A stretch of 64,000 nt of DNA, from assembly GCA_026770705.1 (NCBI GenBank), contig JANJGN010000038.1, forward strand, positions 2,852,001-2,916,000, given 5' to 3'. This DNA comes from Isurus oxyrinchus (lineage: Eukaryota). The notes under the pieces are model-generated. The model saw nothing but the letters and a program-made list of their open reading frames with translations. It made no database searches and was not told where the DNA came from. A program made the position numbers and the translations under genes. Of this stretch, positions 1,735-39,400 are shown one piece after another. How positions within the stretch are numbered: the stretch's first letter is position 1; every line of letters begins with the position of its first letter.

Positions 1735-2772
1735 GGGGAGGCGATGGCGTAGTAATATAGCCACTACACCATTAATTCCAAGATAGCATAATGTGCTGGG
1801 GAGCCGAGTTCGAATCCTGCCACGGGAGAGGGTAGGAATTGAATTCAAGGCAAAATCTAGATTTAAAAGTCTAATGAAACCTTAATGAACCCGATTGTTG
1901 CAAAAACCCATCTGGTTTATTAATGTCCGCAAGAGAAAAACGTGTGCTGTCTGACAGGTGACTCCAGATCTACAGCAATATGATTCATTTTTAACTGCCC
2001 ACTGAAAGAGCAGGCCACGCAGTTGTATCAAACTGCTGCAAAGCCTCCAAACAGAAATGAAACCGAACGGACCACAAGGCATCGACCTTGACTCGGCATC
2101 GGAAACAGCACTGGCAAATTCAGCCGTGTCGAGCCTGCAAAGTCCTCCTTACTAATATCTTGGAGCTTGTGCCAAATTTGGGAGAGCTGGCTCAGAGGCT
2201 AGTCAAGCAGCAGCCTGACATAATCAATCTCACAGAATCATATCTCGCAGATAATGTCCTAGTTATCACCATCACCATCCCTGGATATGTTCTGTCCCAC
2301 CGCAGGACTGGCCCAGCAGAATTGGTGGCTCAGTGGTATGCAGTCAGGAGGGAGCTGCCTGGGAGTACTCAATATCGACTCCAGACCCTATGAGATCTCA
2401 CGGCATCAGGTCAAGGGCAGGGAAATGTCCTGCAGATGAATCAGTGCTTTCCTCCATGTTGAGGACAACTTGGAGGAAGAACTGAGGGTCGCAAGGACGC
2501 AGAATGTAGTCTGGAGTTGGGCTTCAATGTCCATGGCCAAAGGTATGGCGGTAGTACCAGTATTCACCAAGCTGGCCGTGTCTTAAACTACATAGCTGCT
2601 GTACTGGGAGTGCGGCAGGTGGTGAGGGAACCTACAAGAGGGAAAAATATACTTGACCTCATGCTCACCAACCTGCCTGCCGCAGATGCATCTGTCCATG
2701 ACAGTGTTGGTAGACGTGACCACCACAATCGTTCAGGAGATGAAGCCCCTCTTTCACATTGAGGATACCCCC
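1735..2772 (+). mobile_element. 5' part of an APE/RT LINE with tRNA-like head (interrupted by the provirus)
   Basis: Box A-like tggcgtagtaat (~1745) and box B agttcgaatcc (1807-1817). Then the APE N-terminus VLLTNILELVPNLGEL...QPDIINLTESYL and GFNVH...EPTRGKNILDL. Confidence 0.75.
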
Positions 2773-3341
2773 TGTTCTGATCACTTTGACAAAGGGACCA
2801 CAGCAGTCTCAGGTACAGTTCACGATCGTTTATTCGAGTAATGCAGCTTGAGATAGAATTCTGCTAAACTACAGGTTTTCACCATATTTATACACAACTG
2901 ATCACGTATAAGAACAGCTTCCAGATTCTGATCTCGTCAACATAGAGGTTTACACTAAACATACATCTCCCTAGTAACAAAAGCACCAAAGTAAAGGCAT
3001 CATCTGTCCCTGCTTTCACCCCAAGAGGAGACCTTCCCTCCCATCTCTACTAGGACCATCTGCTCTTTCCCTATCTGCTATAAACAGACCCAATCTTGTT
3101 TGTTTTTCAAACTAAGGCTCCGGGCTCACTCCTAAGACACCCAGTCTATCATGTTTGCATTCCTCACTGTTCGGCCTGGCCTTGCTGATGGTCACAGGCT
3201 CTGAGAGTGTGCAAGGTTCAGATTCCTCCCTGTCCAGCCTGGCCTTTAACTATACTTGAAGGCAGTGGCTGCTTGGATATTTTAAGTAGTCCATTTCCTT
3301 TCAATTAGTTCTTAATGTATCCCCTATAATACCCCCTTACA
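2773..3341 (-). repeat. 3' LTR (569 bp)
   Basis: Plus strand tgtt...ttaca. Direct repeat of 13841-14429. Minus-strand AATAAA at 2829-2834. Confidence 0.9.
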
Positions 3342-3353
3342 GTCCCTCCTTTT
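3342..3353 (-). promoter_or_regulatory. Polypurine tract of the LTR element
   Basis: AAAAGGAGGGAC abuts the TG of the 3' LTR. Confidence 0.8.
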
Positions 3354-3535
3354 GGCTCTTGGCCGAGCCCAAGGTAGCCAATTACAGTGGTGCTGTCCAC
3401 CCTCTTTACGAACCGCCACCCATTGAAACAGGCCAGGTATCTAGCTTTGGTGCGTAAAAAGTACTGGTCAGACCATCTGTATCATACTTTAAACCTTTGA
3501 CTTTCCAAATTCCTTCTCTACCTGTTAAAACTCCT

Positions 3536-5331
3536 TCAGCGCCGCATTTTCTGTGACTTCTGGGTGCAAAGAATCAAGTGTGTTAGATACATAAATAATA
3601 TCAGTTGAAGTATAACGAAGGCATGGGAGATAATCCGAATCCAGGGGCGTATCTGTACGTTTGCGCCCCAGTTCCACCACCACCATGTGGAGAAACCTAT
3701 TTGCTCGATATCCTCCTTTAAGGTTCTAACCTGCTGCTGCAGTGTATGGGAAGTTCTGTATATCTGCTGAGCCTGTCCACGAATTGTGGCTGGCTGCTGG
3801 GGTAATAAGGGAATTTCAAAGGAGAAATGTTTCAAATGCTGTCAGGTAGTTTTAAGGCTTTCCTTGACCTGAATAGTAGTCGTTCCTCTCTTGTATATTT
3901 CGACCAGTTCCACCTTCCCTACCCTTGCTTTCGCCTGTCGGTGTAGGCACACTGAATGATTATGGATGGCGCATATCTGGTTGTTCTTGTATTGGATCTT
4001 CTGCTGCCACGTGGTTATAGAATATCTCCCAATCCCCGTGTATGCAACATGGGTCGGTTCTTTTGCAGCCCATATATTTTCCATTATACACTTTGCTGCT
4101 GCTTTAAATCCACTTAGCTTTACCTGTCTCATATATTGGGTGTGCATACCACTGCGGTGGCCTCTTTCCTACACTTTGCTGATGTGGTGCTAACTATATA
4201 CCCTTCTATGTCTAATGCATATGGTAGAATGTCATGATACCTAGTATAATAATCCTCCCGTATAACCCCAATATGTTCTACTTTATATAATGTCCTGCCG
4301 GGTGTTGACATAGGAATGACAGGTATTACTAATAAAATGCCTATTAGCTTATTACTATTCACTATACATTCAACTTTCATTCTAGGGTCAAGTCATGATC
4401 CTTTTGTCGTGAAAGATTACATAAATGTTCATTAGTTACCCATAAAGGAGCTACTCTTTCATTAATCTGTCTTAAATTCTCTCGGGCTTGTTCCAGTGCC
4501 CAAGATCCATAGGTGCTACAGACATCCTTTCTGCTCACTTCGTCTGAAGTATGTTTCCCTATTTCAATCAGTTTGCTGATTGTCCCCACATTACTTTTGA
4601 GCACGGCAGCCAGACTGTGGATTAATCCTGTTATGTCCTGGTCTGCGTTTAATTGGATGTTAGGAATTCCCTGTCCCCACTCTAGAACCTCCTTCAGCTT
4701 AAATCTCAGGGTCTGGAGCTTCTGGTCAACAGTTGCTAGATTCTGATTCAACCACTGATGTCCCTATATTGAATATCATAGAGGCATAATTTATCATGCT
4801 ACGCTTAACGCAGTTCTCTCGCAAGCCTGATCGCATCTCGCCATTGAGCTGAGATGCTTCAGTCAGCAGCTGGCCCACTAGAGCCGTAAATAGTGCTCGA
4901 ATATGTGTTGAGCACCACGGGGGCGGGGGAATCCAGGATATGTTCAATACTACGGGTCGTGGTGTACATTATCATACAAAACTTGTGATTAACCAATACC
5001 AAAGCATTCGTCTGTCGTGGATGCATAGTCGGGCAAGCTGGGTCAGTCGGTGTAATTTGAGAGGTTTCAATTATCTCTACTCAGACTGTGGAAGTAGATG
5101 TGGGAGGTGACTGGCTAGTGGTATTAATCTCCACATTTGGGAGGACCTCCCGCGCCCGATCGGAAGCAAACCCTGACTATCATTTAAAAGCACTTGTTCT
5201 CCTACTGTAACATTTATCATTCCCTGTTGCATGTCACATTCGGCACTGTCCGTGCTGTACCTAAGTTCCTCCTGTGGTGCGGGATGAGCAGGGATGAACC
5301 CCGACCTTTTTGTCAGTACTGATACGCCCAT
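3536..5331 (-). pseudogene. Fragmented env-like fusion glycoprotein gene
   Basis: Consecutive minus-strand ORF fragments between integrase and PPT: CVKR|SMINYASMIFNIGTSV (cleavage site and fusion peptide; TGC may be CpG-decayed CGC, giving RVKR), heptad NQNLATVDQKLQTLRFKL, IGILLVIPVI...LYKVEHIGV, Trp-rich WWWWNW, and TM helix IISHAFVILQLILFMYL. Confidence 0.7.
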
Positions 5332-5699
5332 GACCAGGATCGTGGGCCTGTGGAGACATTAACATCTGCTCCCATTCTCCATGTAACCGCCTGGTTAATT
5401 GTCATCTATCTTTAACTGTGTGTAATGCCTCCATTTATGTCTCATTCTCATTTCTACAAGTGTGCATGTATCACCTGCCTTAATTACCTCGTATGGTCCA
5501 TGCCTGTGCGCTCCAAGCTCACCTTGACAATCACCTTATTCCCCACTTGGTCCACTTTTGCTCATCGTATTGGCCTGTTTCCATGTCCTTAATCACCTGT
5601 TGGTCTCTGACTTCTTCCTCAACTCATCCAATTGCTTATTTATTTCCCTCAAATAGTCTTGCAGCTTTCCTTTTGTGGTCCTACATCTCCCACTACTAC

Positions 5700-6010
5700 T
5701 ATGATTCCCTAGGGTAACTGCATTGCTCTCATTGTCATTATTTCAAATGGGACGAACCCGGCTGTCCTACTTGTAGTAGCCCTAAGGCGCATTAGAACAT
5801 TACGCTGTTCCCTGTCTCTTGAATTGCTTTTGTGAATGATGTTTTCTTTAAAGTTCAGTTTACCATTTCCACCATCCCCGAGTTCTGTGGCTGGTAAGGA
5901 ATGTAGAATTTCTGTTTATATTAACCTTTATGCATTTCTTTAATAACTCTTCCTGTGAAATGAGTTCCCTGATCTGAATTTATCTGGACAGGCACACTCC
6001 ACTCCTTCCA
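5700..6010 (-). pseudogene. Retroviral-type integrase core remnant
   Basis: WSVPVQINSDQGTHFTG followed (other frame) by KQKFYIPYQPQNSGMVEMVN*TLK, i.e. the second Asp and the Glu of the D,D35E motif. Confidence 0.85.
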
Positions 6011-7667
6011 ATCTACTGTCTCCTGCTGCTGTCCCACATCGGACCTTAATTTCTTAAACTGCCTACACAATTCTACAATGCACCTTCTTATCCTATCTTT
6101 CAATGGCTCAGTGTCTTCACTTCCAGTGACAGTTCTCTCTGGGAGCCGCTTAACTTCCTGTCATCATATTGTTAATTCCATGGTCTTACTTCTTGTTTTT
6201 CACGGTCACATTAATACAATCAGTAATACATCTATTTCGCCTTTTACCAGCTTTCCCTTTACTTGTATCCTTGTGGTATAGTGTTGTTGAGTATTATTTC
6301 TCCTTACATCTCAATTCCTGAAATACAGATTCCACATAGTTCTACCTCTAAGTATTTTTCCCCTGACCATGATCATCCTAAGGTTCTCTTGATGCCAGTT
6401 TCTCTATTGTTTTTATCGTTTATAATGTCTCCTTGCTTTTTAGGCCGTATTAACTATTCCATATCACCGAGGATATCTGTCTCTAGATCTTTGCTTATTT
6501 CTTCCTGTGCGTTTCGAATGTCTCAGCTGATGGCCAGATTATCAATTTCAGTTCCCTTAAAACAGTTTGTATATAGTGTTCTCTTTCCATAACCATGTCT
6601 CCTACTTGCCTCATGCCATTTTACACATGTAACAGCTACATTATTCTCTTGTTCATGTTGCCTGGATAGACTTTAAAATAAATAATATATAACAGTTTTA
6701 ATAACAGAAATTAGGCATTGATATGTTCCTTATCTTCATCTCAAACAGCATTTTATTGTCTCAAAAGTATCCCACTAAATTGTGTCTGACCCGTTTCTTA
6801 GAATTATCCCAGATTCATTAACTCGGCCAAAATTGGATTTCTGCCAAACTTTGTCAAGGTCTTGAACTTAGCTTCATATTTCGGGAACAGACTTACAAAT
6901 ACAAAAGCTTGCAGCATGTGAATTATATCCAATTGTAGTCAAACTTTTAAAAATTAAAATTCCCTTTGAGAAATTATCAGGAACCAAATCTCAAAATTTT
7001 AAACTTTGTAAGAAATGTAATTTACTTTATCAAAATTAAAACTACCTTTTTCTATGTGTATTGATTTGTATCCAAGTTACACTTCCCATATGTTTATCGA
7101 CACATTCTTTACCTTTGGATAGCATCCTCTTTATTCAAAGTAACCTGTTAAATTACACTGCACTTTACAAGTCAAGCCTTGTCCCAGCTTTAAATAACAA
7201 TGCTATTGGCATGCAGATTTCCTTTCATATTTAATTAATCTCTTGAAGAGAAACCCCCTTTTATCCATTGGAATCACATAGACTGTGTGTTTATGCCTCT
7301 TGGTTTGCCTAGAATTCCTTGAAATTCAGGTAACCTTTTTTTACTGCAGAATATTATAACACAAAGTTGTATGAGTTAATACAACTCGTCTGTATCAATC
7401 CCAATCATCTTGGAAGCTGGCGATGCTAGTCTGCAAAGGGGTGGTAGGTACAAAGATTGGTTCATCTAACCCTGCCTAGCTTCATGATACCTTCAAATTG
7501 CGACCCCTTTTGCCAGAAATCTCATCTCAAACCTTATACTCAAAACTTTGGAATGTTTGAGTGTACTTTTCCTTTAATGTAACCTGGGGCTTTCAACCCT
7601 AACGTGCTAAATTGCACATACACATGACAATTTACAGAAGAAAACACATTAAAGCTCACGTATGTGA

Positions 7668-10147
7668 GTAGAACAAATATGTAGGCAAATTTCTGTTTGT
7701 AAGAACAAGAGGGCAATAGTAGTAGGAGACTTCAACTATCCTAATAACAACCGGAATTCAAACAATACAAGGGGCACTGAGGATGAAATATTCAGGCAGT
7801 GTGTCCAGGAAAGTTATTTCAACCAATTAGTGACAAACCCAACGAGAGGAGATGCAATTCTAGACCTTGTCTTGGGGAACGAAGAAGCGCAAGTGATCTG
7901 ACAGTTGGCCACCATATTGGGGACAGTGATCACAATTCAGTTAGATTTAGCATTACTATGGAAAAGGACAGAGATAAGGCAGGAGTATGGGGGAATTCAA
8001 ATATATCTGAAATAAGAAGGGACTTGGCTGAGGTTGCCTGGACAGCAGTGCTGGAGGGTAAAACAATGGAAAACAAGTGAGAAGCACTAAAAAGCGAGAT
8101 CCTAATTGTACAAAGTAGACATGTCTTTGACAAAAATAAGAGCGGTACTACTAAATCCTGGTTGTCTGGAGGAATACAGGGGAAGATCAAACAGAAAAAG
8201 GAATTGTACGATAGGCACAAAGAACTAAGCATTGCAGATAGCATACACAAACAAAGGAAGTGCAGGGACGAAGTAAAAAAGGAAATAAGGAAATCAAAGA
8301 GAGGGCATGAAAAAAGATTAGCAAGTAAAGTTAATGATAACCCACAGATGTTTTACCAATACATTATTAGTTAAGAAAAAAGTGGGACCTATCAGAGATG
8401 AAGATGGAAATTTCTTTGCAGATGCAGAGGCTGTGGGAAGGGTTTTGAATGAATATTTCGTGTCTGTGTTTACAAAGGAAAGGGAGGACGTAGATATAGT
8501 AGTCCAGGAGGAACACTGTGAGATATTGGACGGGATAGTCACAAAGAGGGAGGAAGTACTCGAACGATTGATATCCTTGAAAGTTTATAAGTCGCCAGGG
8601 CCAGTTTCCGAGGCTGCTGAAGGAAGTCAGTGAGAAGATAACAGATGCTCTGAGGATGATTTTCCAATCTTCACTAGATACAGGGGAGGTGCCGGAGGAC
8701 TGGAGAAATGCAGTAGGTCCATTGCATGAAAAGGGATAAAACGAAATACCAAACAATCATTGGCCATTTAGTCTTACATCGGTGGTGAGCAAATTAGTAG
8801 AATCGATCCTGAGAGATAGGATTAACTGTCATGTGGAAAAGCATGGGCAAGACAGGGATGGTCAGCATGGATTTGTCAAAGGAAGGTCTTGCATCACAAA
8901 TTTGACTGAATTCTTTGAGGAAGTGACAAGATGGGTTGATGAGGGTCGTGCAGAAGACGTTGTGCACATGGATTTTAGAAAGGCATTTGACGAGGTCCCA
9001 CATGGCAGATTGGTCAGGAAGGTAAAAGCCCATGGGATTCAGGGTAATGTGGAAAACTGGATAAAAGGTTGGCTTTGTAACAGGAAACAAAGGGTAATGG
9101 TTGATGGATGCCCTTGCAAATGGTAAGTGGTCTCAAGTGGTGTTTCACATGGGTCGGTGTTGGGACCCTTGCTGTTTATGTTGCAAAGTAACGATTTGGA
9201 CGTGACCCTGGAGGGTACGATTGGGAAATTTGCAGATGATAAAAACATTGGCCGAGTAGTGGATAGTGCAGAAGATAGCCATAATCTCCAAAATGATATA
9301 GATGGGTTGGTGGAGTGGGTGGTAAAGTGGCAGATGGATTTTTACATAGAGAAGTGTGAGGTCATACATTTAGGGAGGTCAAACAGGTACAGGGATTTCA
9401 AAATAAGTGGCAATATACTAAGAGGGGTAGACGAAGTTAGAGATCTTGGCGTTCAAGTACACAGGTCCCTGAGGGCAGCAGTTCAAGTAGACAAGGTTGT
9501 AAAGAAAGCATATGGAATGATCTCCATCATTAGCAGAGGTATGGACTTAAAAGTAAGGATTTAATGTTGGAATTGCATAAAACACTGGTGAGGCCACAAC
9601 TGGAGTATTGTGTGCAGTTCTGGTCACCACATTACTGGAAGGACGTAATAGCTCTGGACAGAGTGCAGAGGAAGTTTACACAAATGTTGCCTGGGTTAGA
9701 AAAGTGTTGCTACGAGAAGAGATTGGATAGGTTGTGGCTATTTTCCTTGGAACAAAGAAGGCTGAGAGGTGACTTGCTTGAGGTGTACAAAATAATGAGT
9801 GGAATAGATAGAGTGGACAGGATAGGATTGTTTCCCTTGGTGGAGAATTCTAGGGCACATAGATTCAAGATAAGTGGCAGAAGGTGTAGGAGGGACATGA
9901 GTAAGAACTTTTTTATGCAGAGGGTAGTGGGTGTCTGGAATTCACTGCCCAAGTTGGTGGTAGAGACAGAAACTTTAAACTGTTTAAAAAAGTACCTGGA
10001 TCTGCACCTTAAGTGCTGTAAACTGCAGGGCTATGGGCCGGGTGCAGGAAGGTGGGATTAGAAAGGGCATCTGGGTGTCCTCGGGCTAGCATGGACAAGA
10101 TGAGCTGAATGGCCTCCTTCTGTGCTGTAACTTTTATATGTTTCTAT
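7668..10147 (+). mobile_element. CR1-type LINE, 5'-truncated ORF2 pseudogene, nested in the provirus
   Basis: APE end (VVGDFNYP), RT motifs (QHGFVKGRSCITNL, DFRKAFD, SGVSHGSVLGPLLF, KFADD), C-terminal KTLVRPQLEYCVQFWSP, and a CR1 3' tail ending ttctat. Confidence 0.92.
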
Positions 10148-10549
10148 ACAAATGCTTCATTGCACACAAGCAAACTTACATTTAGAACTATGTATTTATA
10201 TTCCTGTATCCTTAACAACGACTTAAAGCTCTCATATTCTAAATGAAACTTCAAATAGCAATGGAGGAAATAAAGGGATCTTGAAGGCACCACCTTTAAG
10301 GACCATCAAACTGACGAAAGCTCACAGTTCCCCTGCTACTGCCTGTCAGTGCTTATTAATCCTCTAGGGGTAGGCCCCTTTTCTCTCTCTCTCTCTTCAG
10401 CACAAGCAGCTCTTGTAACTTAGATCAATTGAACATTAAGTTACAGAAAATTCAGTGGTGGACCTATTGGGTACCAATCATCCTTCCAGATTTTCATGAA
10501 AATCTGTCATATCGCACCAGACATTATACGCACCCAATTTGTCTCTCCA

Positions 10550-11560
10550 TCCCTCAAGGCTTCCTCAATTGCTTCCTCAAAGTCCCTGTGCTGGGCTGTC
10601 GCCTTCTCCCGATCTGGGATGTGCCCAGGTTTTGCCCAATCTCCGCTTCTAAACTGTATGGCCAATCATCCCCAAATATCCCCTGGCACTTCGCCTTCAC
10701 CAGTATGTGGTTATCAAGGGGGTGCATTGCATGGGAATCTTGCATTTCCCCTAGTTTGGTTCAAAAATCTGGTTTGTTATGCCGAGTTTTAAGTCTCAGC
10801 AGTTCTTTCAGCAAAACCTGCTTCTCCCCCGGGCTTAATGGTACATGCTGAACTTTCTCCTTCACACTCTCCATCTCCTCGTCCTTCCTCCATTCCTCAG
10901 CCTCCTTTCTCCCTTCGGTTTATTATTAGCCTTTCCTGGCTTTACTTTTCCTAACAGTTACTGCCACAGGGGCCATGGGATTCAACGGGCAAAATGGGGT
11001 GGTTGGTTCGTATGAGGTCGGTTTTGTCGCAACTCCATCATTGGTTTCTGCTTTGGAGCTCTCTCCCTTTTGATCAGTGTCACTACAAGCTGTCGCCACT
11101 GCTCTGATCTGTCCTGATTCTGACCCTGTCTCTCTCTGTCTAATCGACTGGAATTTAGGATTAATCTGCCTACACAACTGCAGGGACAAGATAATAATAA
11201 CCATCACCCCTTTCTTTTCCTTATACTTTTTCTGCTCTATACACCACTGTTTTTGTACTTCGGGGGTTCCCTGTGGATTCCACCCCTCCTTCTGCATTTT
11301 TGTGATTAGTTTGGACTGCTGTTCCACTATGAACCTCCTAATGGAACCCACGGTTCCCCAGTTGAGTTCCATAGCACTGTTCTGTTTCCCTGACGGCACA
11401 CTGTTCTTATTCCCATCTATCTCTGCGCGGGACATTTGCACGGCCCTAATAACTTGCTTACTTGTGGTATGTGTGGTTTCATTTATTTCACTTGGGTCTA
11501 TCCTCCCTGCGTGGCTTTGGCTCAGGCTGATTTGAAACCTTAACCCGCCAGCACGGATCT
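10550..11560 (-). pseudogene. Probable gag remnant of the LTR element
   Basis: Long minus-strand ORF pieces (10926-11588, 10554-10745) at the gag position after the PBS/leader. No diagnostic motif recognised. Confidence 0.4.
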
Positions 11561-11686
11561 GCCTCTCTTTAACTGGGATAAAAACCAAAAAAAAAAATGC
11601 GGATCCTGGAAATCCAAAACAGAAACAAAAACAGAATTACCTGGAAAAACTCAGCAGGTCTGGCAGCATCGGCGGAGAAGAAAAGA

Positions 11687-11723
11687 GTTGACGTTTCGAG
11701 TCCTCATGACCCTTCGACAGAAC
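11687..11723 (-). ncRNA. Minimal hammerhead ribozyme-like motif in the Penelope left arm
   Basis: CTGTCGA-A-GGGTC-atgag-GACTC-GAAAC: stem II plus GAAA core. The first core box deviates from CUGANGA. Confidence 0.5.
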
Positions 11724-13414
11724 TTGCGTTCGAGTCCAAGAAAGAGTTGAAATATAAGCTGGTTTAAGGTGTGTGTGTGAGGGGTGGAAAGAGAGAGAGG
11801 TGGAGTGGGGGTGTGGTTGTAGGGACAAACAAGCAGTGATAGAAGCAGATCATCAAAAGATGTCAACAACAATAATACAAAAGAACACATAGGTGTTAAA
11901 GTTAAAGTTGGTGATACTATCTAAACGAATGTGCTAATTAAGAATGGATGGTAGGGCACTCAAGTTATAGCTCTAGTGGGGGCGGGGAGAGCATAAAAGA
12001 TGTAAAAGAAATATAAAATAAATAAATAAATATTTCTTTTTCTTTTTCTCTTTCTATAATGGAAATAGGTGGGAAAAGGAAAATCTACATAATTTATTGG
12101 AAAAAAAAGAAAAGGAAGGGGGAAACAGAAAGGGGTTGGGGATGGGGGAGGGAGCTCACGACCTAAAGTTATTGAATTCAATATTCAGACCGGAAGGCTG
12201 TAAGGTGCCTAGTCGGAAGATGAGGTGTTATTCCTCCAGTTTGCGTTGGGCTTCACTGGAACAATGCAGCAAGCCAAGGACAGACACGTGGGCAAGAGAG
12301 CAGGGTGGAGTGTTAAAATGGCAAGCGACAGGGAGGTTTGGGTCATTCTTGCGGACAGACCGCAGGTGTTCTGCAAAGCAGTCGCCCAGTTTACGTTTGG
12401 TCTCTCCAATGTAGAGGAGACCACATTGGGAGCAACGAATGCAGTAGACTAAGTTGGGGGCAATGCAAGTGAAATGCTGCTTCAGTTGAAAGGAGTGTTT
12501 TGGTCCTTGAACGGTGAGGAGAGAGGAAGTGAAGGGGCAGGTATTGCATCTTTTGCGTGGGCATGGGGTGGTGCCATAGGAGGGGGTTGAGGAGTAGGGG
12601 GTGATGCAGGAGTGGACCAGGGTGTCCCAGAGGGAGCGATCCCTACGGAATGCCGATACGGGGGGGTGGGTGGGGTGAAGGGAAGATGCGTTTGGTGGTG
12701 GCATTATGCTGGAGTTAGCGGAAATGGCGGAGGATGAACGTAAACTGGGCGACCACTTTGCAGAACACCTGCGGTCTGTCCACAAGAATGACCCAAACCT
12801 CCCTGTCGCTTGCCATTTTAACACTCCACCCTGCTCTCTTGCCCACATGTCTGTCCTTGGCTTGCTGCAGTGTTCCAGTGAAGCCCAACGCAAACTCGAG
12901 GAACAACACCTCATCTTCCGACTAGGCACCTTACAGCCATCCGGACTGAATATTCAATTCAACAACTTTAGGTCGTGAGCTCCCTCCCCCATCCCCACCC
13001 CCTTTCTCTTTCCCCCTTCCTTTTCTTTTTTTCCAATAAATTATACAGATTTTCCTTTTCCCACCTATTTCCATTATAAAAAGAGAAAAAGAAAAAAAAT
13101 ATATTTATTTATTTTATATATGTTTTTACATCTTTTATGCTCTCCCCACCCCCACTAGAGCTATACCTTGAGTGCCCTACCATCCATTCTTAATTAGCAC
13201 ATTCGTTTAGATAATATCACCAACTTTAACTTTAACACCTATGTGTTCTTTTGTTTTACTGTCGCTGACATCTTTTGATGATCTGCTTCTATCACTGCTT
13301 GTTTGTCCCTACAACCACACCCCACTCCACCTCTCTCTCTCTCTCTCTCTCCGTCCCCCACACACACACCTTAGACCAGCTTATATTTCAACTCTTTCTT
13401 GGACTCGAACTCAA

Positions 13415-13451
13415 GTTCTGTGGAAGGGTCATGAGGACTCGAAATGTCAAC
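13415..13451 (+). ncRNA. Minimal hammerhead ribozyme-like motif in the Penelope right arm
   Basis: CTGTGGA-A-GGGTC-atgag-GACTC-GAAAT, the mirror copy of 11687-11723. Confidence 0.45.
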
Positions 13452-13823
13452 TCTTTTCTTCTCCGCCGATGCTGCCAGACCTGCTGAGTTTTTCCAGGTA
13501 ATCCTGTTTTTGTTTTTGTTCTGCTTAACTGGGGTTTGGTCTCCCTGTGCAGCTTCGATTATTGTTATATTTCAAGCCATAATCCGCCTGCACGGCTTTG
13601 CCTCCTCTGTTTGGTCGTGGTCCGGCCTTCCTGTATCTCTTTGGCACCGCTAGCCGGCCTTCGCGGCTCCGCCTCCTACCCTGGCGCCTCCTATCTCCTG
13701 TCCTGAGTCCTTCTCCAGATTGTTTGATACTTGACCGGACTGTTCTCGGGTAGGCTTACTTACAGGTGGTAAATAAATATACTCACCCACTGTGCAGAGT
13801 CGCCCAGAGGATCCGATCCAAGT

Positions 13824-13840
13824 ATCTTGCTGACTACACC
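13824..13840 (-). promoter_or_regulatory. Primer-binding site, tRNA-Ser type
   Basis: GGTGTAGTCAGCAAGAT immediately follows the 5' LTR. Compare TGGCGTAGTCGGCAGGAT, the complement of the vertebrate tRNA-Ser 3' end. Confidence 0.75.
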
Positions 13841-14429
13841 TGTTGTGGTCACTTTGACAAACGGACCACTGGAGTCTCAGGTACAGGTCATGATCGTTTA
13901 TTGGAGCAATTGAAAGGAGAGAACCATCCTAATGCAGTTTGAGATAGCACTCTAAAAACTTCAAGTGTTAACCATATCTCTACATTATTGATCACATATA
14001 AGAACAGTTTCTAGATTCCGATCCCATCAACATATAGGTTTACATTAAACAGATGTCTCTCTAGTAACAAAGTTACCAAAGTACAGACATCATCTGTCCC
14101 TACTTTCACCCTGGCGGAGGCCTTCTCTCCCAACTGAACTAGGACGATCTGTTCTTTCCCTATCTGATATAAACAGGCCCAATCTTGGTTGTTTTTCAAC
14201 CAAAGGCTCCGGTCGGACTCCTCCAACACCCAATCTATCACATTTGCATTCCTTTATGTTCGTCCTGGCCTTGCTGATGGCCACAGGCTCTGAGGGTGTG
14301 CAAGGTTCAGCTTCCTCTCTGTCCAGCCTGGCCTTTAACTATACTTTCAGGCACTGGCTTCTTGGATATTTTAAACAGTTCATTCACTTTCAATAAGTTC
14401 TTAATGTACCCCTATATTCTCCCCTAACA
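13841..14429 (-). repeat. 5' LTR (589 bp)
   Basis: Plus strand tgtt...taaca. 9 differences from the other LTR in the first 69 aligned nt, so the insertion is old. Confidence 0.9.
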
Positions 14430-16745
14430 CCCCCCATCGTGTTTTGTGGCACTAGCTTAATGGGGTAGATTTCGAACAGATCCAGCAAGTCAAAACTGGG
14501 CATCCATGCGGTGCTGTGGCCCATTAGCAGCAGCAGAATTGTACTTGAGTACAATCTGTAACCTCATGGTCCAGCATAATAAAGGCATACAGGAAACTGA
14601 TTTTATTAGCCCATGCATAGAATACAAGGGCAGGGACTTTAATAGGGAATTGTATAAGACGTTGGTTAGACCACAACTGGAATACTGCATGCAGTTCTGG
14701 TCACATAATGGGAAAGATATAATTGCACTAGAGAGGATCCACTCGGCTGGAGCGTCTGAGCTTGGAGGACAGATTTCATAGGCTGGGTTTGTTTTGCTTG
14801 GAGCAGCAAAGTTTGAGAGGGGACCTGATAGATGAATATAAAATGAAGGGCATAGATAGGGTGGATAGGAAGTCATTTTTTCCATCAGTACAGGGGTCAA
14901 AAACCAGGGGGAATGGATTTAATATAAGAGGTAGAAGGCTGAGACGGGAGTTGAGGAGAAATTCTTTCACCAGAGGGGGTGGGAGTCTGCAATTCACTGC
15001 CTGAAACGGTGATTGGGTCAGAAAATCGCATAACATTTAAGAAGTATTTAAGTATTCACTTGCGTTGCCTTGGTCTCCGGGGCCATGGGCCAAGCGCTGG
15101 AAAATGGGATTAATGTTGTCAGACCTTCGCCGACTGGCACAGACACGATGGGCCAAATGGCCTCCATCTGTGCTGTCGACTTATATGAGTCCACAAGCCT
15201 ATATCACCCATTCTATCATTACCATCAAACCAGGGTTCCAACTATGGTTCAATGAAGAATTCATGAGGGCATGTCAGGAGCAGAACCAGGCACACCTAAA
15301 AAAGAGGTGTCAACCTGGTGGAGCGATAACACAGGGTTACATGCGTGCCAAACAGCATAATCAGCAAGTGATAGGCAGAGCTAAGTGGTCGCGCAACCAA
15401 TGGATCAGATGTAAGTACTGCAGTCCTGCCACATCCTGTCGTGAATCGTGGTGGACAATTAAACAACTCACTGCAGGAAGAGGCTGCACAACCATTCCCA
15501 TCCTCAATGATGGAGGAACCCAGCACATCAGTAAAATAGGCAAGGGTGAAGCATTTGCTACAATCTTCAGCCAGAGGTGCCCAGTGGATGACCCATCTTG
15601 GTCTCGCCCCAGAATCACATATGCCAGTCTTCAGCCAATTCGATTCACTCCACGTGATCTCAAGAAAAGGCTGAAGGCATTGAATTGTACAAAGGCGATG
15701 GTCCAGGAAAATATTCCGTCAATAGTACTGAAGACTCGTACTCCAAAACTTGCCAAGATGCTCCGGTATGTCTACAACACTGGGTTCCTCAGGGTAGTGT
15801 CCTCGGCCCAACCATCTTCAGCTGCTTCATCAATAACCTTCCTTTCATCATAAGGCCAGAGGTGGGATGTTTGCTGATGATTCCACAATGTTTAAACACA
15901 ATTCGCGACTCCTCTGATGCTGAAGCAGTTCGTGTCAAAATGCAGCAAGACCTGGACAATAACCTGGCTTGGACTGACAAGTAGCAAGTAACAATTGCGC
16001 CTCTCAAATGACAGGCTATGTCCATCTGCAACAAAGGAGAATCTAGCTGCCGCCTGTTGAGGTGCAATGGCATTGCCATCGCAGACTTCCCCCCCCCCCC
16101 CCCCCCCCCACCCCCCGGTATCAACATCCTGAGGGTTAACAATGTCCAGAAATTGAGCTGCAATAGACATATAAATACTTTGACGACAAGATCAGGCCGC
16201 AGGATGGGAATCCTGGGACGAGAAACTCACCTCCTGACTCCCCAAGGTCTGTCCACCAATCTACAAAGTACAAATCAGGAATGTGATTGGACAATCTCCA
16301 TTTGCCTGCATGAGCGCAGCTCCCACAGCACTCAAGAAGCTGGAGACCATCACATCCGCAAACAGTTACCCCCTGCATCACAGTAGCAGTATTGTGCACC
16401 ATCTTCGAGATGCACTGCAGGAATTCAACAAGGCTCCTTCGACAGCATCTTCCAAGCACATAGACACTGCCATCTAGAAAGACAAGGGAACTAGATATAG
16501 GGGAACGCCACCATCTGGAAGTTCCCTTCCACGTCACTCACCATTCTGACTTGGAAATATATCGCCTTTCCTTCACTGTCGCTGGGTGAAATACCTCGAG
16601 CTCCCTCCCTAACAGCACGGTGGGTGCACCTACACCACACAGAATGCCAAGTTTCCAGAAGCTCGCTCACTAGCTCAAGAGCAATTAGGAATGGGCAATA
16701 AATGCTGGCCCAGCCAGCGAAACCCACATCCCGTGAACGAAAATT
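14430..16745 (+). mobile_element. 3' part of the same LINE (includes a CR1 3' fragment at ~14580-15190)
   Basis: Resumes after the LTR. RT motif VPQGSVLGPTIFSCFINNLP and 3' end gggcaataaatgctggcccagccagc. Confidence 0.75.
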
Positions 16746-21169: not shown

Positions 21170-23270
21170 AATACATCTTGCAACTTTAAACTGGACAGTC
21201 TATGAGGCAATGTGGACCATCACCAACAGTGGATATCTATTCAACCGCAATCTATAACCTCGGGGCCCAGCAAATAGCCCCCTACACCACTACCATCAAA
21301 TCAGTGGATCCAAACTAGTTGAACAAAGAGTTGAGGTGGGCATGGCTTTGGCAGAATCAGGCAGGCCTAAAATTGAGGTGTCAACATGGTGCATAGAGAA
21401 CACAAGATACTTGATTGCCAAAGAGCAGAAACAGCATGCGATCGAGAGAAGTAAGTAATCGTGCAACCAACATGTCATATTGAAGGTGTGCAGTCCTGCC
21501 ACATCCAGTCAAAAAAAGGGCTTGTATAAGTCAACAATTAACAAGACGATGAGAATCCATAAATACCCTCATCACCAATAACAGGCGAGCCCAGAACATC
21601 AGTGCAAAAGACAAAGCCGAATCATTTGCAACAATCTTCAGTCAGAAATGCTCAGTGGATGGTTGAACTCTGCCTGCTCTTGAGGTCAGCAGCATCAGAA
21701 GAGCGAGTCTTCAGCCAATTTGATTCACCCCACTTCATGAAAAAGCTGCTGAAGGCTCTGGAAACTGCTAAGGTTTCGGGCCCTGACAACATTCCAGCAA
21801 TTGAGCTGAAGTCTTGTCCTCCGGAATAAGCTGTACCCCTAGCCAAGCTGTTCCAGTGTATTTGGAACACTGGCATACACCCCGAAAAGTAGAACATTTC
21901 CTATTTTTAGCATGTGCACAAAAGAAGTGACAAATCCAACACGGCCAATTACCCCACCATCAGTTTACTCTTGGTTATCAACAAAGTGATGGGAGGTGTT
22001 TTCAACAGTGTCACAAAGAGGTGTTCATTGACGCTCAGTCTGTGTTGCATCATCGCTACTCAGCTCTGAACGCCATTGCATTCTAGAACCAAATATGAAC
22101 CAGAATTGAACAAAAGAGGTGAGATGAGAATAACTGCTGTTGACATCAGGGCATCCTTTGACCGAGTGTGGCATTAAGGAGCTCTCAAAAAACTGGAGTC
22201 AATGGGAAACTGGTAAGAGTCATACTTAGCACAAAAGAAGATCATTGTGGTTTTTGAAGGTCAAACATCTTAGTCCCAGGATATTCCTGCAGGAGTTCCT
22301 CGGGGTAGTGATCTCGGCCCATAAATCTTCCGCTGCTTCATCAATGACCATCCTTCCATCATCAGGTCAGAAGTGGGGATGTTCGCTATTGATTGTACAA
22401 GGTTAAACAAGAATATCCACACCACAGATAATGAAGCAGCTCCTGGCCTTGGGCAGCAAGAATAGGACAACATCTAGACTTGGGCTGATAATTTGAAACT
22501 AACATTCGTTCGATACGATTATTAGGCAATGGTCATCTCCAATATGAGAGAATCTAATCATTTCCGTCTGAGAATCAATGACATTACTATCACTGACACC
22601 CCCAATATCAACATTGTGGGGATTACTATTGGAGAGAATCTGAACTGTACCATCCAGATAAATAATTTGGCGAAAAGAGCAGTTCACAGGTTAGGAACTC
22701 TGCAGTGAGAAACTCACCTCACCCCCACCAAGAACTGTCCACGATCTACAAGGCACAAGACAGGAGTGTGATGGAATATTGTCCACTGCCCAGATAAATG
22801 CAGCTCCAACAGCAATCACGAAACTCCATAACATCAGGAAATGGAGCCCCCTTCAATCGCAACTTATTCACTCTCTTAAACGTTTACTCCCTCCATCAGC
22901 GACAGGTAGTGAGAGCAGCATATACAACACAAAATGAACTTCAGCAATTCACGAAGCGTCCATCGAGAGCAAACAAACCCTTGACCTCTGCCACCTTGAA
23001 GGACAAAGTCTGTAGATGAAATGGAACACCACCGATTGCAAGTTACCCTCCAAACCACACGCCACCCTGACTTGGAAATATGTTGCTGTTGCATCCATGC
23101 TGCTGGGCCAAAGCCCTCTAACTGCCTTCCTGACATAAATGTTTTAGCACATACACCAAGTGGGCAACTGCATTTCATTAAAGCGGCACATCACCAGCTT
23201 TCAAGGGCAATTAGGGATAGTCAATAATAACTTGCGTAACCAGAGAAGCCAACTTGCCATTAATAAATCA
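21170..23270 (+). mobile_element. Decayed LINE of the same family as 1735-16745
   Basis: GPDNIPA and GVPRGS..GP..FRCFIND remnants and the same 3' end. Duplicate at ~37980-40070. Confidence 0.7.
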
Positions 23271-33461: not shown

Positions 33462-36400
33462 CTAGAATAAATAAATGGAGTGTGTTATAAATGAGATCAG
33501 GTTGAATATAGACCAGATATAACACAAAGGCGGCAGCTGGCAGGGGTATGCTGCATTGGAAGTCAAAGTAAAGGAACATGAAAATACCTTAAGTCGATTA
33601 ATGTAATTTTCCAAAAACATGGGTATGTTTGTTGGGTGGTGACACTGGGTGTCATACAGGGTACCTAGGTCATAGGAGTGATTTTAAATGATAATGTGTG
33701 CATCATTTGCACGTTTACGTGAAAAATGATCAATCCCATGTGATTGAAGTTTAGTTTTTCTCCTTTAGCAGCTGAAAACACCAAAATAATCAAAGATCTA
33801 TTCAGAAGGTTCACTCGTCCCCTATCTGAATAGAAGGATGGACTCAGGCTCGAATCACTTGCAGTTCACAGGCTAAATAACCTAACAGATCATCAGGAAA
33901 ATGGGGAGGAGTCACAGAAGAATTTAGGAGGTCTTGTCAGTAGCAGAACCAGGCACACCAAAAAAAGAGGTGTCAACCTGGGGGAGCTATAACACAGGAC
34001 TGCTTGCATGCCAAACAGCATAATCAGTAAGTGATAGGCAGAGCTAAGCGATCCTGCAACCAATGGATCAGTTCTGCCACATGCAGTTGTGAATCACGGT
34101 GGACAATTAAACAACTCACTGAAGGAGGAGGCTACAAAAACATTCCCATCCTCAATGATGGAGGAGCCCAGCACATCAGTGCAATAGATACTGCTGGAGC
34201 ATTTGTTGCAATCATCACCCAGAGTTGCCCAGTGGATGAGCCACCTTGGACTCATCTGTACGTCCCCAGAATCACAGATGCCAGTCTTCAGCCAATTCGA
34301 TTCACTCCACGTGATCTCAAGAAAAGGCTGAAGGCATAGAATTGTACAAATGCGACGGTCCAGGAAAATATTCCGTCAATGGTACTGATGACTCGTACTC
34401 CAAAACTTGCCAGGCCACTAGCAAAGCTATGTGCTAGTTCATCTACAACACTGGGTTGCTCAGGATAGTGACCTCGGCCCAACCACCTTCAGCTGCTTCA
34501 TCAATGACCTTCCTTTCATCATAAGGTCAGAGGTGGGGGTGTTTGCTGATGATTCCACAATTTAAATACACAATTCGCGACTCCTCTGATGCTGAAGCAG
34601 TTCGTGTCCAAATGCAGCAAGACCTGTACCGTAACCTGTTTTGGACTGACAAGTAGCAACTAACAATCGTGCTACTCAAATGACAAGCTATGTCCCTCTG
34701 CAACAAGGGAGAATCTAGCCACCAATCATTACCAATGACATTACTATCGCAGAATCCCCCTGGTATCAACATCCTGGGGGTTAACATTGACCCGAAATTG
34801 AACTGGCATATAAAAACTTTGACTACAAGATCAGGCCACAGGCTAGGAATCCTGGGACGAGAATCTCACCTCCTGACTCCGCAAAGTCTGTCCACCAATC
34901 TACAAAGCACAACTCAGGAGTGCCATTGGACACTCTCCACTTGCCTGCATGTGTGCAGCTCTCACAGCACTCAAGAAGCTGGAGAACACCCAGGCAAACC
35001 CGCCCACTTGATTGGCATCACATGTGCGAACATGTACCCCCTACAGCACAGTAGCATCTGTGTGCATCATCTACTAGATGCACTGCAGGAATGCAACAGG
35101 ACTCCTTCGACAGCACCTTCCAAGCACATAAGCTGTGGGTCCACCTACACCACATGGCTGCAAAGCCGCTCACCAGCTCAAGGGCTATTAGGAATGGACA
35201 ATAAATGCTGGCCAAGCCAGCGAAACCCACATCCTGTGACTGAAAAGTATATGCCAGGGAATCCACTGTCTCTGGCACTTCTAGGCGCCCAAGTTAAATG
35301 CCTTCAGGCCCTGGGAACTTGGCGGATTTCCGTTTTTTTTGTCTTCAGTAATTTTTCTGTTGATATAAATTACCTTAATTTATTCACTCTTATAAGCACT
35401 TATGTTAACTTATATTCCTGGTGAGCATCTTGTAATTTCCATTGTGAAGGTACTCACCACCTCTCTGTTCAATTTCCCTGCCATCTCGTCATTCCCGGTA
35501 ACAATTTCCCCTGACACTAGTAAGTGTTTACTTCAGTTACATTCATTTTTTAACTGGTGAAAGTTTTTACAATCTGTTTTATGCTCCTGTCTAGTGTGCT
35601 CTGCAATTGAATGCTTTCCCCACTTTTTAACAACTTTTGGCTGATCCTTTCATTCTTTGTAATACAATCTTAATCCTCAGTCTTGCTCCCACTCTTTGCA
35701 ACATTATACGTTTTTCTTTTTAATCTGATACCATCTTTACTTCCTGAGTAATACTCGGATGTGATTTTTCTTGTTGAGTTTTTGGTTTTACAATCGAATG
35801 AATTTTGTCCAAAAATATGAATTGTTCCTTGAAATTGTTCCCACTGTTTATTTACTACTATAACTGTAATTCGTTTACCCCAACCACACTTACTCAGTCC
35901 TCTCCTCATTCCTAAATAATTGGTTTTATTTAAATTGAATGTTATTGTTTGGTAGAATATGTTGCTCTCAAGCTTAACGTGGAAGTTAAATGCATAACGA
36001 TCAGCAGCTCCCAGTGGATCTTTAATAATGTCCCATTTTCCGCGAAGCATTGTTCCAAGAAATAATCATCTTCTTGACGACCCTTGTCAATTTGTTATGC
36101 CTTATTTTTATGAGGATTAAAATTCCCCAGCTTTATTAAATAGCCTTTGTGACAGGTTCCAATAATTTCTTGTTTAATGCTCTTTGCAACTGTTAGATTC
36201 TCCTAGTGGATGTATAACCTACTCCCACCAGGGTTTACTGACTCTCTTTGTCCAAAATATTCACCTAACCAGATTCCACTGCATGATCTTCTGATCCAAG
36301 GCCCTTGCTCATTAAGGTCCTTATGCCATCATTTACTATCAGTACCGCTTGGCAATTCAGTCTGCATTTGAAACATATTGCGTAGCCTGGAGTACTTATA

Positions 36401-39400
36401 CTACAACCTTAGTCACCGTGCAGCTCTGTTTCTGTATTGACGAATAGCTGTTAGTTGTTTATCTCGATTTGTGACAATAGTTCATCGACTTATCGTATTG
36501 TGAGTGTATTTCTGTATCCTGACAAGGATAATTTAGTTTAATGTCGGCGACTATTGCCTGAATGTTATTTTTTCACTTTCTGATGCAGGATTACTGTTCA
36601 ACTCTTTGCACCTTCCTGATCTGCTCTGCTGGTTTTTAGTTTGTTCCATTGCCTTGACTTTTATCTTCATATTTCTATACCTCCCTTCACACAGACTCTG
36701 CTCCCACCCTACATTTGACGAAGTAACAGAAACCCTTGTTATACAGTTCACCATGACACTGCCAACAGCCATGTTTCAGCACAGCCTGTGCCAATTGAAC
36801 AATCCTATCTTTAATGGGTGCTTGTGCCGCTTCCCCATGAATGCCGTCTTTCTGCTCATTCAAGTAGGCCACAAGCACATCTGTCTCTTGGGCAAATTCA
36901 AGGGCTCTGAACCCACCATCAGTATCTACAGCATACTGATCCCTGCCTATCTCACAGTCATAATCCGCTGTCTCTGGTAATTGCAAGACTCTAACTTTCT
37001 ACTTGGCCTAAAGGGCTGAGAGAGGTTCCTGGAACACAATGTCTGGATAGCGATCCCCCTCCCAGACGCTACACAAAGTCTGGGTCTCTGGCTTCTGCTT
37101 GCGGTCGAATGCCTTTAAGGAGCCTATCTATAACTACTGTACACTATCAGAGAGTTTGCGATGTACATGCTCAATTAATCATCACGCTGAAGATATGAGC
37201 AGCTCGAGGGACAGGACCTGTCAGCGCACTTGCAGAGATTGGTGCATGTGGTTTCACCCCATGAAATAAAAGAGCCCACATAATTGTGTTACCAATCTTC
37301 TTGGTTGTGGTATCTGTGTGTCGCAGAAACCAAAACATTGCTCAATAGATCAGAGGCGAAATCTCTTGCCACAGATTTAGTTTTTTGGGATTGCAATCAT
37401 TCCACAGATTCTGATGTTTTTGAATTAAAGCACGCCAGTATGACTGTCATGGCTGAATAATCTTATTTAATGAACAAATCAATTATATACTAATTGATAC
37501 AGCTAAACTAGTAGCAAGTTATCCCCCATAGATTTTTGGCAGAAAAAAACCTACCTGCTACTGAAGGCCCCAGAATGGTACAAAAAGTGCACCTCCTTCT
37601 TCCTTTGCACCGATTTCCCACTTAAACCAAATTCCCAAATTGGCTTTTGTTCCTCGTCGCAGGCAAGCCTTGTCATCTCACTTTGTCATCTCACACTGTA
37701 TAATTCTCTCGAGAGAGCAGATGGCGCAAACCAAGATGCAGCTGCTAAGTCAGCTGTCTGCTCCAGTAAATAACATCTATTCAGGTAGCAACTTTCAGTT
37801 GGCTGACTGATAACTGAAAGTGACATAGGCGTTTCTGTTAACTATGCCTGTTAACAAACACACCTAAGTTTCATATCAGAGAGTGACTGCTAATCTGAAT
37901 TCTATCTTGAGAAACACTTAGCGGAGATATTCCTGTTGTATGGCACCTACCACCGTGCTCTTTGGGATTGATTTCCAACACATCTTGAAACTTCAAACTG
38001 GGCGTCATGAGGCAATGTGGACCATCAGCAGCAGTGGAATTCTATTCAACCGCAATGTATAATCTCGAGGCCCTGCAAATGGCCCACTGCACCACTACCG
38101 TCAAATCAGTGGATCCACTCTGGTTTAATGAAGAGTGGAGGAGGGCATGAGTTGGGCAGAATCAGGCAGGCCTAATGTAGAGGTGTCAACATGGCGAAGG
38201 GAGAACACAAGATACTTGATTGCCAAAGAGCAGAAACAGCATGCAAGCGAGAGAGGTAAGGGATCCCACAACCAACGTATCATATTGAAGGTCTGCAGTC
38301 CAGCCACATCCAGTCATAAAAGTGCTTAGATAAGTCAACAACTAACAAGACGATGAGAATTCATGAATATCCTCATCACCAATAATCGGTGGGCCCAAAT
38401 CATAAGTGCAAAATACAATGCTGAATAATTTGCAAACATATTCAGCTAGAAATGCCCAGTGGATGCCCAATTTCCCTGCTCTTGAGCTCAGCATCATCAG
38501 AAGAGCCAGTTTTCAGCCAATTGGATTCACGCTACTTCGTGAAGAATCTGCAGAAGGCGCTCGAAAATGCAAAAGGTTTCGGGCCCTGACAACATTCCAA
38601 CAATCGTGCGGAAATCTTTTCCTGCTTAATAAGCTGTACCCTTAGCCAAGCTGTTCCAGTGTATTTGGAACAGTGACATTTACCCTGCAAAGTAGAACAT
38701 TGCCCTATTTTAGCGTGTGCACAAAAAGAAGGGACAAAACCAACACTGCCAGTTTTACCACGCCATCAGTTTACTCTTGGTTATCAACAATTTTATGGGA
38801 GGTGCTTTCAACAGTGTAATACAGAGGTGCTCGCTGACGCTCAGTTTGGGGTACATCATCGCTACTCAGCTCTGAACGCCATTGCAGTCTTGATCCAAAT
38901 ATGAACCAGAATTGAACTCAAGAGGTGAGAATGACTGCTGTGACGTCAGGGCATCATTTGACAGGGTGTGCCATTAAGGAGCCTAAAATAACTGTCGTCA
39001 ATGGGAAAATGGTGAGACTCATACTTAGCAAAAAAGATCATTGTCATTTCTCAAGGTCAGTCATCTTGGTCCTAGGATATTCCTGCAGGAGTTCCTCGGG
39101 GTAGTGTCCTCGGACCAAAAATCTTCCCATGGTTCATCAATGACCTTCCTTCCATCATAAGGTCAGAAGTGGGGATGTTAGTGATGATTGTACAAGGTTC
39201 AGCATGAATATCCGCACCATAGATACTGGAGCAGCTCGTGGCTTTGGGCAGCAAGAATAAGACAAAATCTACACTTGGGCTGATAAGTTGAAACTAACAT
39301 TCGTTCGATACCATTATCAGGCAATGGTCATCTCCAGCATGAAAGAATCTGATCATTTCCATCTGACAATCAATGACATGACTATCACTGATTCCCCCCA

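Follow-up and report, generated by a model that had tools for sequence, protein, structure and literature searches.

Within the 64,000-nucleotide stretch of Isurus oxyrinchus DNA analysed here (the window), an env-bearing provirus raises the question of which retroviral lineage brought such an envelope into a shark. An earlier note, made from the sequence alone, had likened it to ERV4 and the lokiretroviruses or, alternatively, to a related uncharacterised env-bearing clade. The element is genuine, an endogenous retrovirus (ERV) of 11.7 kb on the minus strand that died long ago. As argued below, it is probably an ancient, defunct member of a family with an internal deletion that descends from a canonical retrovirus of the deep, unclassified SnRV/Ovex1-related grade (clade Huo, broadly), a reading close to the last of these proposals. 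The features of the provirus are collected in Table 1.

Table 1. Features of the provirus, in window positions (.: no strand).
Feature	Position	Strand	Remarks
TSD, left copy	2768..2772	.	5-bp C run, within old LINE
3' LTR	2773..3341	-	TG...CA ends; poly(A) signal near 2834
Polypurine tract	3342..3360	-	
env, broken	3536..5358	-	~600 codons; several frameshifts and stops; probably F-type
env C-terminal TM	~3643-3562	-	
env HR2	~3790-3710	-	followed by Trp-rich segment
env Cys/beta-rich core	~4390-3900	-	
env putative fusion peptide and HR1	~4800-4600	-	
env dibasic site	4806-4801	-	roughly a third of the way along
Integrase C-terminal half, broken	5400..6001	-	second Asp ~5974, Glu ~5869
AT-rich family sequence	6002..7672	-	36% GC; replaces protease, RT, RNase H and N-terminal half of integrase
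CR1-type LINE insertion	7679..10147	+	endonuclease and RT remnants (Pfam)
gag, broken	10450..11440	-	homology to L004 Gag at N-terminus; weak collinearity of capsid segments
Penelope-like inverted pair	11578..13524	.	arms 92-97% complementary; weak GIY-YIG match
Primer-binding site, Ser-type	13824..13840	-	14/17 bases as in published CrocERV36 PBS
5' LTR	13841..14429	-	TG...CA ends
TSD, right copy	14430..14434	.	

The direct repeats at both ends, spaced 11.07-11.09 kb apart, are LTRs, with 478 of 564 aligned bases the same (85%; K2P 0.171) in an alignment that ended 2 nt before the 3' LTR end at 3341. Five C residues lie to the left of 2773 and six to the right of 14429, giving a 5-bp target site duplication (TSD). 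On either side the provirus is bordered by LINE-like sequence: that on the left gave a weak match to the internal CR1's endonuclease (E 0.009), that on the right a match to other LINE copies of the window (E 7e-6). The polypurine tract adjoins the 3' LTR (17 of the 21 bases in 3340-3360 are purines), and the primer-binding site (PBS) matches that of CrocERV36, which we take to be complementary to tRNA-Ser. Paired LTRs, polypurine tract and tRNA-Ser-like PBS had all been described in the earlier note and were borne out. At the mammalian rate of 2.2e-9 per site per year, the LTR divergence translates into 39 My; with the rate of PMC4422223, which is taken to be ten times slower, it translates into 389 My. 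Given these two ages, only 'old' is a safe description.

Later insertions account for about 4.4 kb of the total 11.7 kb: a CR1 LINE flanked by a 6-bp TSD at 7673 and 10148, and a Penelope-like inverted pair flanked by a 9-bp TSD at 11569 and 13525. The inverted pair is the top-copy repeat of the stretch in all four public sequencing runs that were compared. Elsewhere in the window, several copies of a different LINE family, which carries an RT remnant, lie at 15250-16460, 21288-22836, 33917-35130 and 38093-39620.

The env remnant, with its Trp-rich segment and C-terminal TM, had been recognized before and was confirmed. Among 1.84 billion representatives the sole match was P0001, a 317-aa protein of the horn shark Heterodontus francisci that is collinear with env over three frames (E 2e-42; 37-41% over 4496-3572). 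In the sequence itself, this single match is what points, indirectly, to a cartilaginous-fish host. P0001 corresponds to four isoform accessions (XP_067888393-6) and equals the C-terminal half of env; possibly it is the product of a transcribed env-derived gene in H. francisci. Of the motifs previously ascribed to env, the absence of CX6CC was confirmed in all three frames. The cleavage site holds as a dibasic site only, R-X-K/R-R being absent from the env frame, and the fusion peptide holds as a putative segment in which no 15-residue window exceeds KD 1.5. No match to TLV_coat was obtained with env, although the control Env of L006 does match it, nor was there a match to the Pfam F families including PF00523, to the foamy family PF03408 or to PDB sequences.

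The earlier note had proposed checking env for an F-protein-like fold. Two AlphaFold models of env were of low quality (pLDDT ~40), and none of the Foldseek matches attained E 0.001. With the second model, pneumovirus F chains made up four of the top ten PDB rows (E 1.4-2.7); these matches are not fully independent because the Env of L009, a reference of SnRV size, was in the model's alignment. The Atlas model of P0001 (pLDDT 0.54) had as structure neighbours two 874-aa chordate clusters (TM 0.50 and 0.47) and two Baculo_F-containing arthropod clusters (TM 0.42 and 0.41), and the weak feature matches included a Foamy_virus_ENV cluster (0.84), all Atlas matches being below the naming bar. Zebra finch Ovex1 ORF3 has 874 aa and lacks CX6CC; by size and taxon only, the chordate clusters may thus, indirectly, be taken as Ovex1-like. 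By eye, the order of motifs in env resembles that of the Envs of Loki-Ape, CrocERV39 (Ovex1 clade) and L009. The TM part of L009 Env aligns with env end to end at 23%, a similarity that is not significant. The TM region of L009 Env itself (~7985-9250) has an F-like motif order by eye and gave no Pfam or PDB sequence match. Together, the motif order and the sub-threshold structure matches make it, indirectly, likely that env encoded an F-type (class Ib) fusion protein. The F-like, non-gamma character first proposed is likely right, the fold itself being putative.

Similarity to integrase begins abruptly at 6001 and extends to ~5400 through frameshifts and stops. What had been described as a D,D35E remnant is indeed integrase, but only its C-terminal half: it lacks both the zinc finger and the first Asp of the catalytic triad, and 34 residues separate the D and E that are left. 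At ~5499-5491 there is a GPF/Y-type motif, in the same position as in L004. The best integrase match, and the one integrase match among two candidates, was the turtle ERV protein P0002 (59%), which bears a retroviral RNase H. For comparison, references were drawn from contig scans: L001-L003, presumably epsilonretroviruses judging by their lengths; L006-L007, with gamma-type Env; L009; and L004/L005. Frameshift-tolerant scores were 249 for P0002 and 201 for L004 (aligned to 5410), as against 128-134 for the epsilon references, 115 for the avian gamma-type L006 and 77 for L009, the lowest of seven references; shuffle maxima were 39-47. In a tree of the integrase core (67 columns, nine rows, leaving out L005 and the non-retroviral L008 and containing no Loki row), the window, P0002 and L004 join at 87/87 on an unstarred branch, separate from the references of epsilon and gamma type; L009 does not fall with them either. 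The grouping with epsilon- or gammaretroviruses that the earlier note named as evidence against its proposal was thus not seen. An epsilonretrovirus or class I ERV was rejected on the same data (integrase scores of 115-134 versus 201-249, and a tree position outside both clades).

These integrase data also bear on membership of Repbase ERV4, which we regard as very unlikely. The element shares with ERV4 a 5-bp TSD and the presence of an env, ERV4 member CrocERV36 carries the matching PBS, and the nearest integrase is from a turtle. ERV4, however, by definition lacks the GPF/Y motif (PMC4299795, Table 1), which the element has, and it has been reported from crocodilians and turtles only. Two further traits of ERV4, monophyly in RT trees and a Gag devoid of zinc fingers, concern regions that are not recognizable in the element. 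Moreover, by eye, an ERV4-block integrase core is unlike that of the window whereas the CrocERV37/38 (Ovex1 clade) cores are alike, and P0002, L004 and the window are all nearer to CrocERV37-40 (Ovex1-related and unplaced crocodilian ERVs) than to an ERV4-block integrase. The Ser-type PBS, on which the likeness to ERV4 had partly been built, is not diagnostic because it is found both in the ERV4 member CrocERV36 and in the unclassified CrocERV40.

Gag points in the same direction as integrase. The recognizable part matches L004 Gag with a score of 70 that none of 60 shuffles reached (P 3e-5), while L003 and L009, the other two of three references tested, gave no match (4/60 shuffles each); the Gag C-terminus is not recognizable in the element. 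L004 and L005 are metagenome contigs that are 98.8% identical. Positions 664-6012 of L004 hold an intact gag and pol, arranged as gag-stop-pol in one frame with a short protease, a Cys-His box, a YCDD RT and a tether plus RNase H, and its RT scores 151-156 bits to foamy virus/MLV versus 114 to Ty3. By this architecture and these RT scores, L004 is a canonical retrovirus, and L004/L005 represent a deep-branching one. By eye, L004 RT is like that of CrocERV39/40. Its Pol is about equidistant (31-32%) from epsilon and SnRV-size Pol. The short 3' remainder of L004/L005 holds no env, and the L004 PBS looks tRNA-Tyr-like.

One alternative is that the element is itself a lokiretrovirus (lokiortervirus), by which that lineage would reach the cartilaginous fishes. 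In its favour, env (~600 codons) is similar in size to Loki-Ape Env (~575 aa), whose order by eye also comprises an N-terminal strand, a small-residue fusion segment, a hydrophobic strand pair and Cys pairs, and the integrase core is identical to that of Loki-Ape at 26 of 53 positions by eye. Against it, the corresponding figures are 33/53 for P0002 and 31/53 for L004, and Gag is homologous to that of canonical L004. As the integrase margin in this by-eye comparison is small, Gag weighs as heavily in the argument against Loki. By eye, moreover, L004 has no counterpart of the ~570 residues that precede RT in Loki-Ape Pol, and its RT motif is the canonical LPQG versus CPFG in Loki. An F-type Env is not specific to Loki either, as foamy Env and, by eye, the order of CrocERV39 Env illustrate. 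In PMC7947760, none of three chondrichthyan genomes was positive, and those three were the only ones screened. We therefore consider the Loki assignment of the earlier note unlikely. Env architecture and a Ser-type PBS are unfit for calling an element either Loki or ERV4.

A further candidate is a foamy-like ERV of clade Tu, a group with an established F-like Env. Foamy viruses have a 4-bp TSD and a tRNA-Lys PBS, unlike the 5-bp TSD and Ser-type PBS seen here. The best PDB match of P0002 is PFV integrase (E 3e-39), foamy Env has the F core (PMC11468914), and the Foamy_virus_ENV cluster appears among the Atlas matches; nevertheless, env is much shorter than the ~990 codons of a foamy env with its RBD insert and gave no match to the foamy family of Pfam, and in L004 there is a Cys-His box, with gag and pol in one frame, so that this origin too seems highly improbable. 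Still less credible is a Ty3/gypsy element with a captured F-type env (errantivirus-like). The Baculo_F-containing arthropod clusters lie near env in Atlas and, according to a preprint, F-type env is widespread among metazoan Ty3/gypsy elements, but that same preprint found the invertebrate elements to have no homologues in vertebrates, the nearest integrase protein has a retroviral RNase H and Gag matches a retrovirus. Descent from the SnRV/Ovex1-related grade is thus the best reading of Gag and the integrase fragment, by which the element is placed; RT, which defines clades, is missing from it.

A pol profile built from three retroviral Pols detected no protease, RT, RNase H or N-terminal half of integrase in nine frames of the minus strand, covering the internal region outside the insertions. 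In their place lies the 1.7-kb interval 6002-7672, which holds no ORF longer than 53 codons and no domain match. Contigs of four public sequencing runs were compared with the element at 80% likeness, and many diverged contigs cover env, this interval and gag in two organisms. The interval sequence is common to many family copies. Among the matches listed (32, with over 514,000 beyond them), the junction at 6001 is spanned by 4 of 32 pieces, from two organisms, with 45-62 differences in 290-345 bases (15-18%). These pieces are paralogues of the element; as they share the 6001 junction, pol loss predates amplification, and it looks family-wide. From paralogues with a common junction we infer a non-autonomous family copied in trans. 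A contig of run X1, from one of the two organisms, joins 10430 to 11186, a further gag-deletion variant. Env is commonly the gene lost in non-autonomous ERVs; an amplified family that is without RT and yet retains env represents a less usual life history.

The history of the element can be outlined as follows. The ancestral virus, as its anatomy indicates, primed reverse transcription on a Ser-type tRNA and integrated with a 5-bp duplication, and it would have entered cells by means of a compact fusion protein of class Ib (F-type), with cleavage roughly one third along its length. A derivative then probably lost half of its integrase together with protease, RT and RNase H while keeping LTRs, PBS, polypurine tract, gag and env, and an autonomous helper presumably copied it in trans. 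The present copy subsequently decayed and received the CR1 and Penelope insertions visible today.

Taken alone, this copy is an unremarkable dead provirus. With its probable F-type Env, it adds one more datum for F-type envelopes on canonical retroviral backbones of basal vertebrates, rather than as a hallmark of Loki, and bears on the question whether the first retroviral env was F-type, with gamma- and beta-type Envs replacing it later. A further, tentative possibility is that sharks harbour undescribed canonical retroviruses, other than SnRV, with a ~600-residue F-type Env homologous to that of Loki, and an RT-less, env-retaining family in at least two species. If so, an F-type Env would, together with the foamy and Ovex1-clade Envs, be ancestral to canonical retroviruses and Loki alike. 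This would be at odds with independent acquisition, the scenario preferred in PMC9040795. The literature searched, mainly open-access, contained no Loki in sharks and no F-type Env in shark canonical ERVs.

Among known systems, the element most resembles the unclassified SnRV/Ovex1-related ERVs, namely CrocERV37-40/45, avian Ovex1 and SpeV (PMC4299795, PMC2717909 and PMC8922424). These share an Env that lacks both CX6CC and an immunosuppressive motif and has a coiled coil ahead of its TM, a GPF/Y-like motif and, by eye, the integrase core and the order of Env motifs; in addition, the Atlas neighbours of P0001 share the Ovex1 Env size, and the unclassified CrocERV40 shares the Ser-type PBS. Differences are the Ovex1 Env of 873-874 aa versus ~600 codons here, in a comparison by eye and size only, the largely family-wide loss of pol and the shark host. 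Clade Huo groups by Pol/RT with SnRV, ERV-L and ERVs of class III and infects all major vertebrate lineages. L009, at 10,688 nt, has the published SnRV size and was taken as the snakehead retrovirus reference; the SnRV Env of ~1,130 aa is far from the length seen here. PMC4422223 describes an SnRV-like CmiERV lineage I from the elephant shark, so that a deep canonical retrovirus grade is already known in cartilaginous fish.

Foamy Env and other class Ib proteins (PMC11468914) probably share with env the fusion mechanism and the F core, which comprises a core beta sheet and a helical bundle, but env leaves no room for the large RBD insert, and other features of the LTR element differ. Loki is defined by RT phylogeny (PMC7947760), as a clade sister to canonical retroviruses or outside them, with lokiorterviruses treated in PMC9040795. 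Its integrase is of the Loki/CGIN1 group, and its Env resembles Mononegavirales F (PF00523), having an RXKR site, fusion peptide, coiled coil and TM. It shares with the element a compact Env, in the element probably F-like, with an early cleavage site and the gag-pol-env order between LTRs; in contrast, Gag and integrase point to canonical retroviruses, and no smc gene was recognized in the element. The tether plus RNase H of L004 is common to all retroviruses, including Loki with its dual RNase H. Most likely, therefore, the element works like a Loki-style retrovirus with an F-type Env, yet belongs to the SnRV/Ovex1-related grade.
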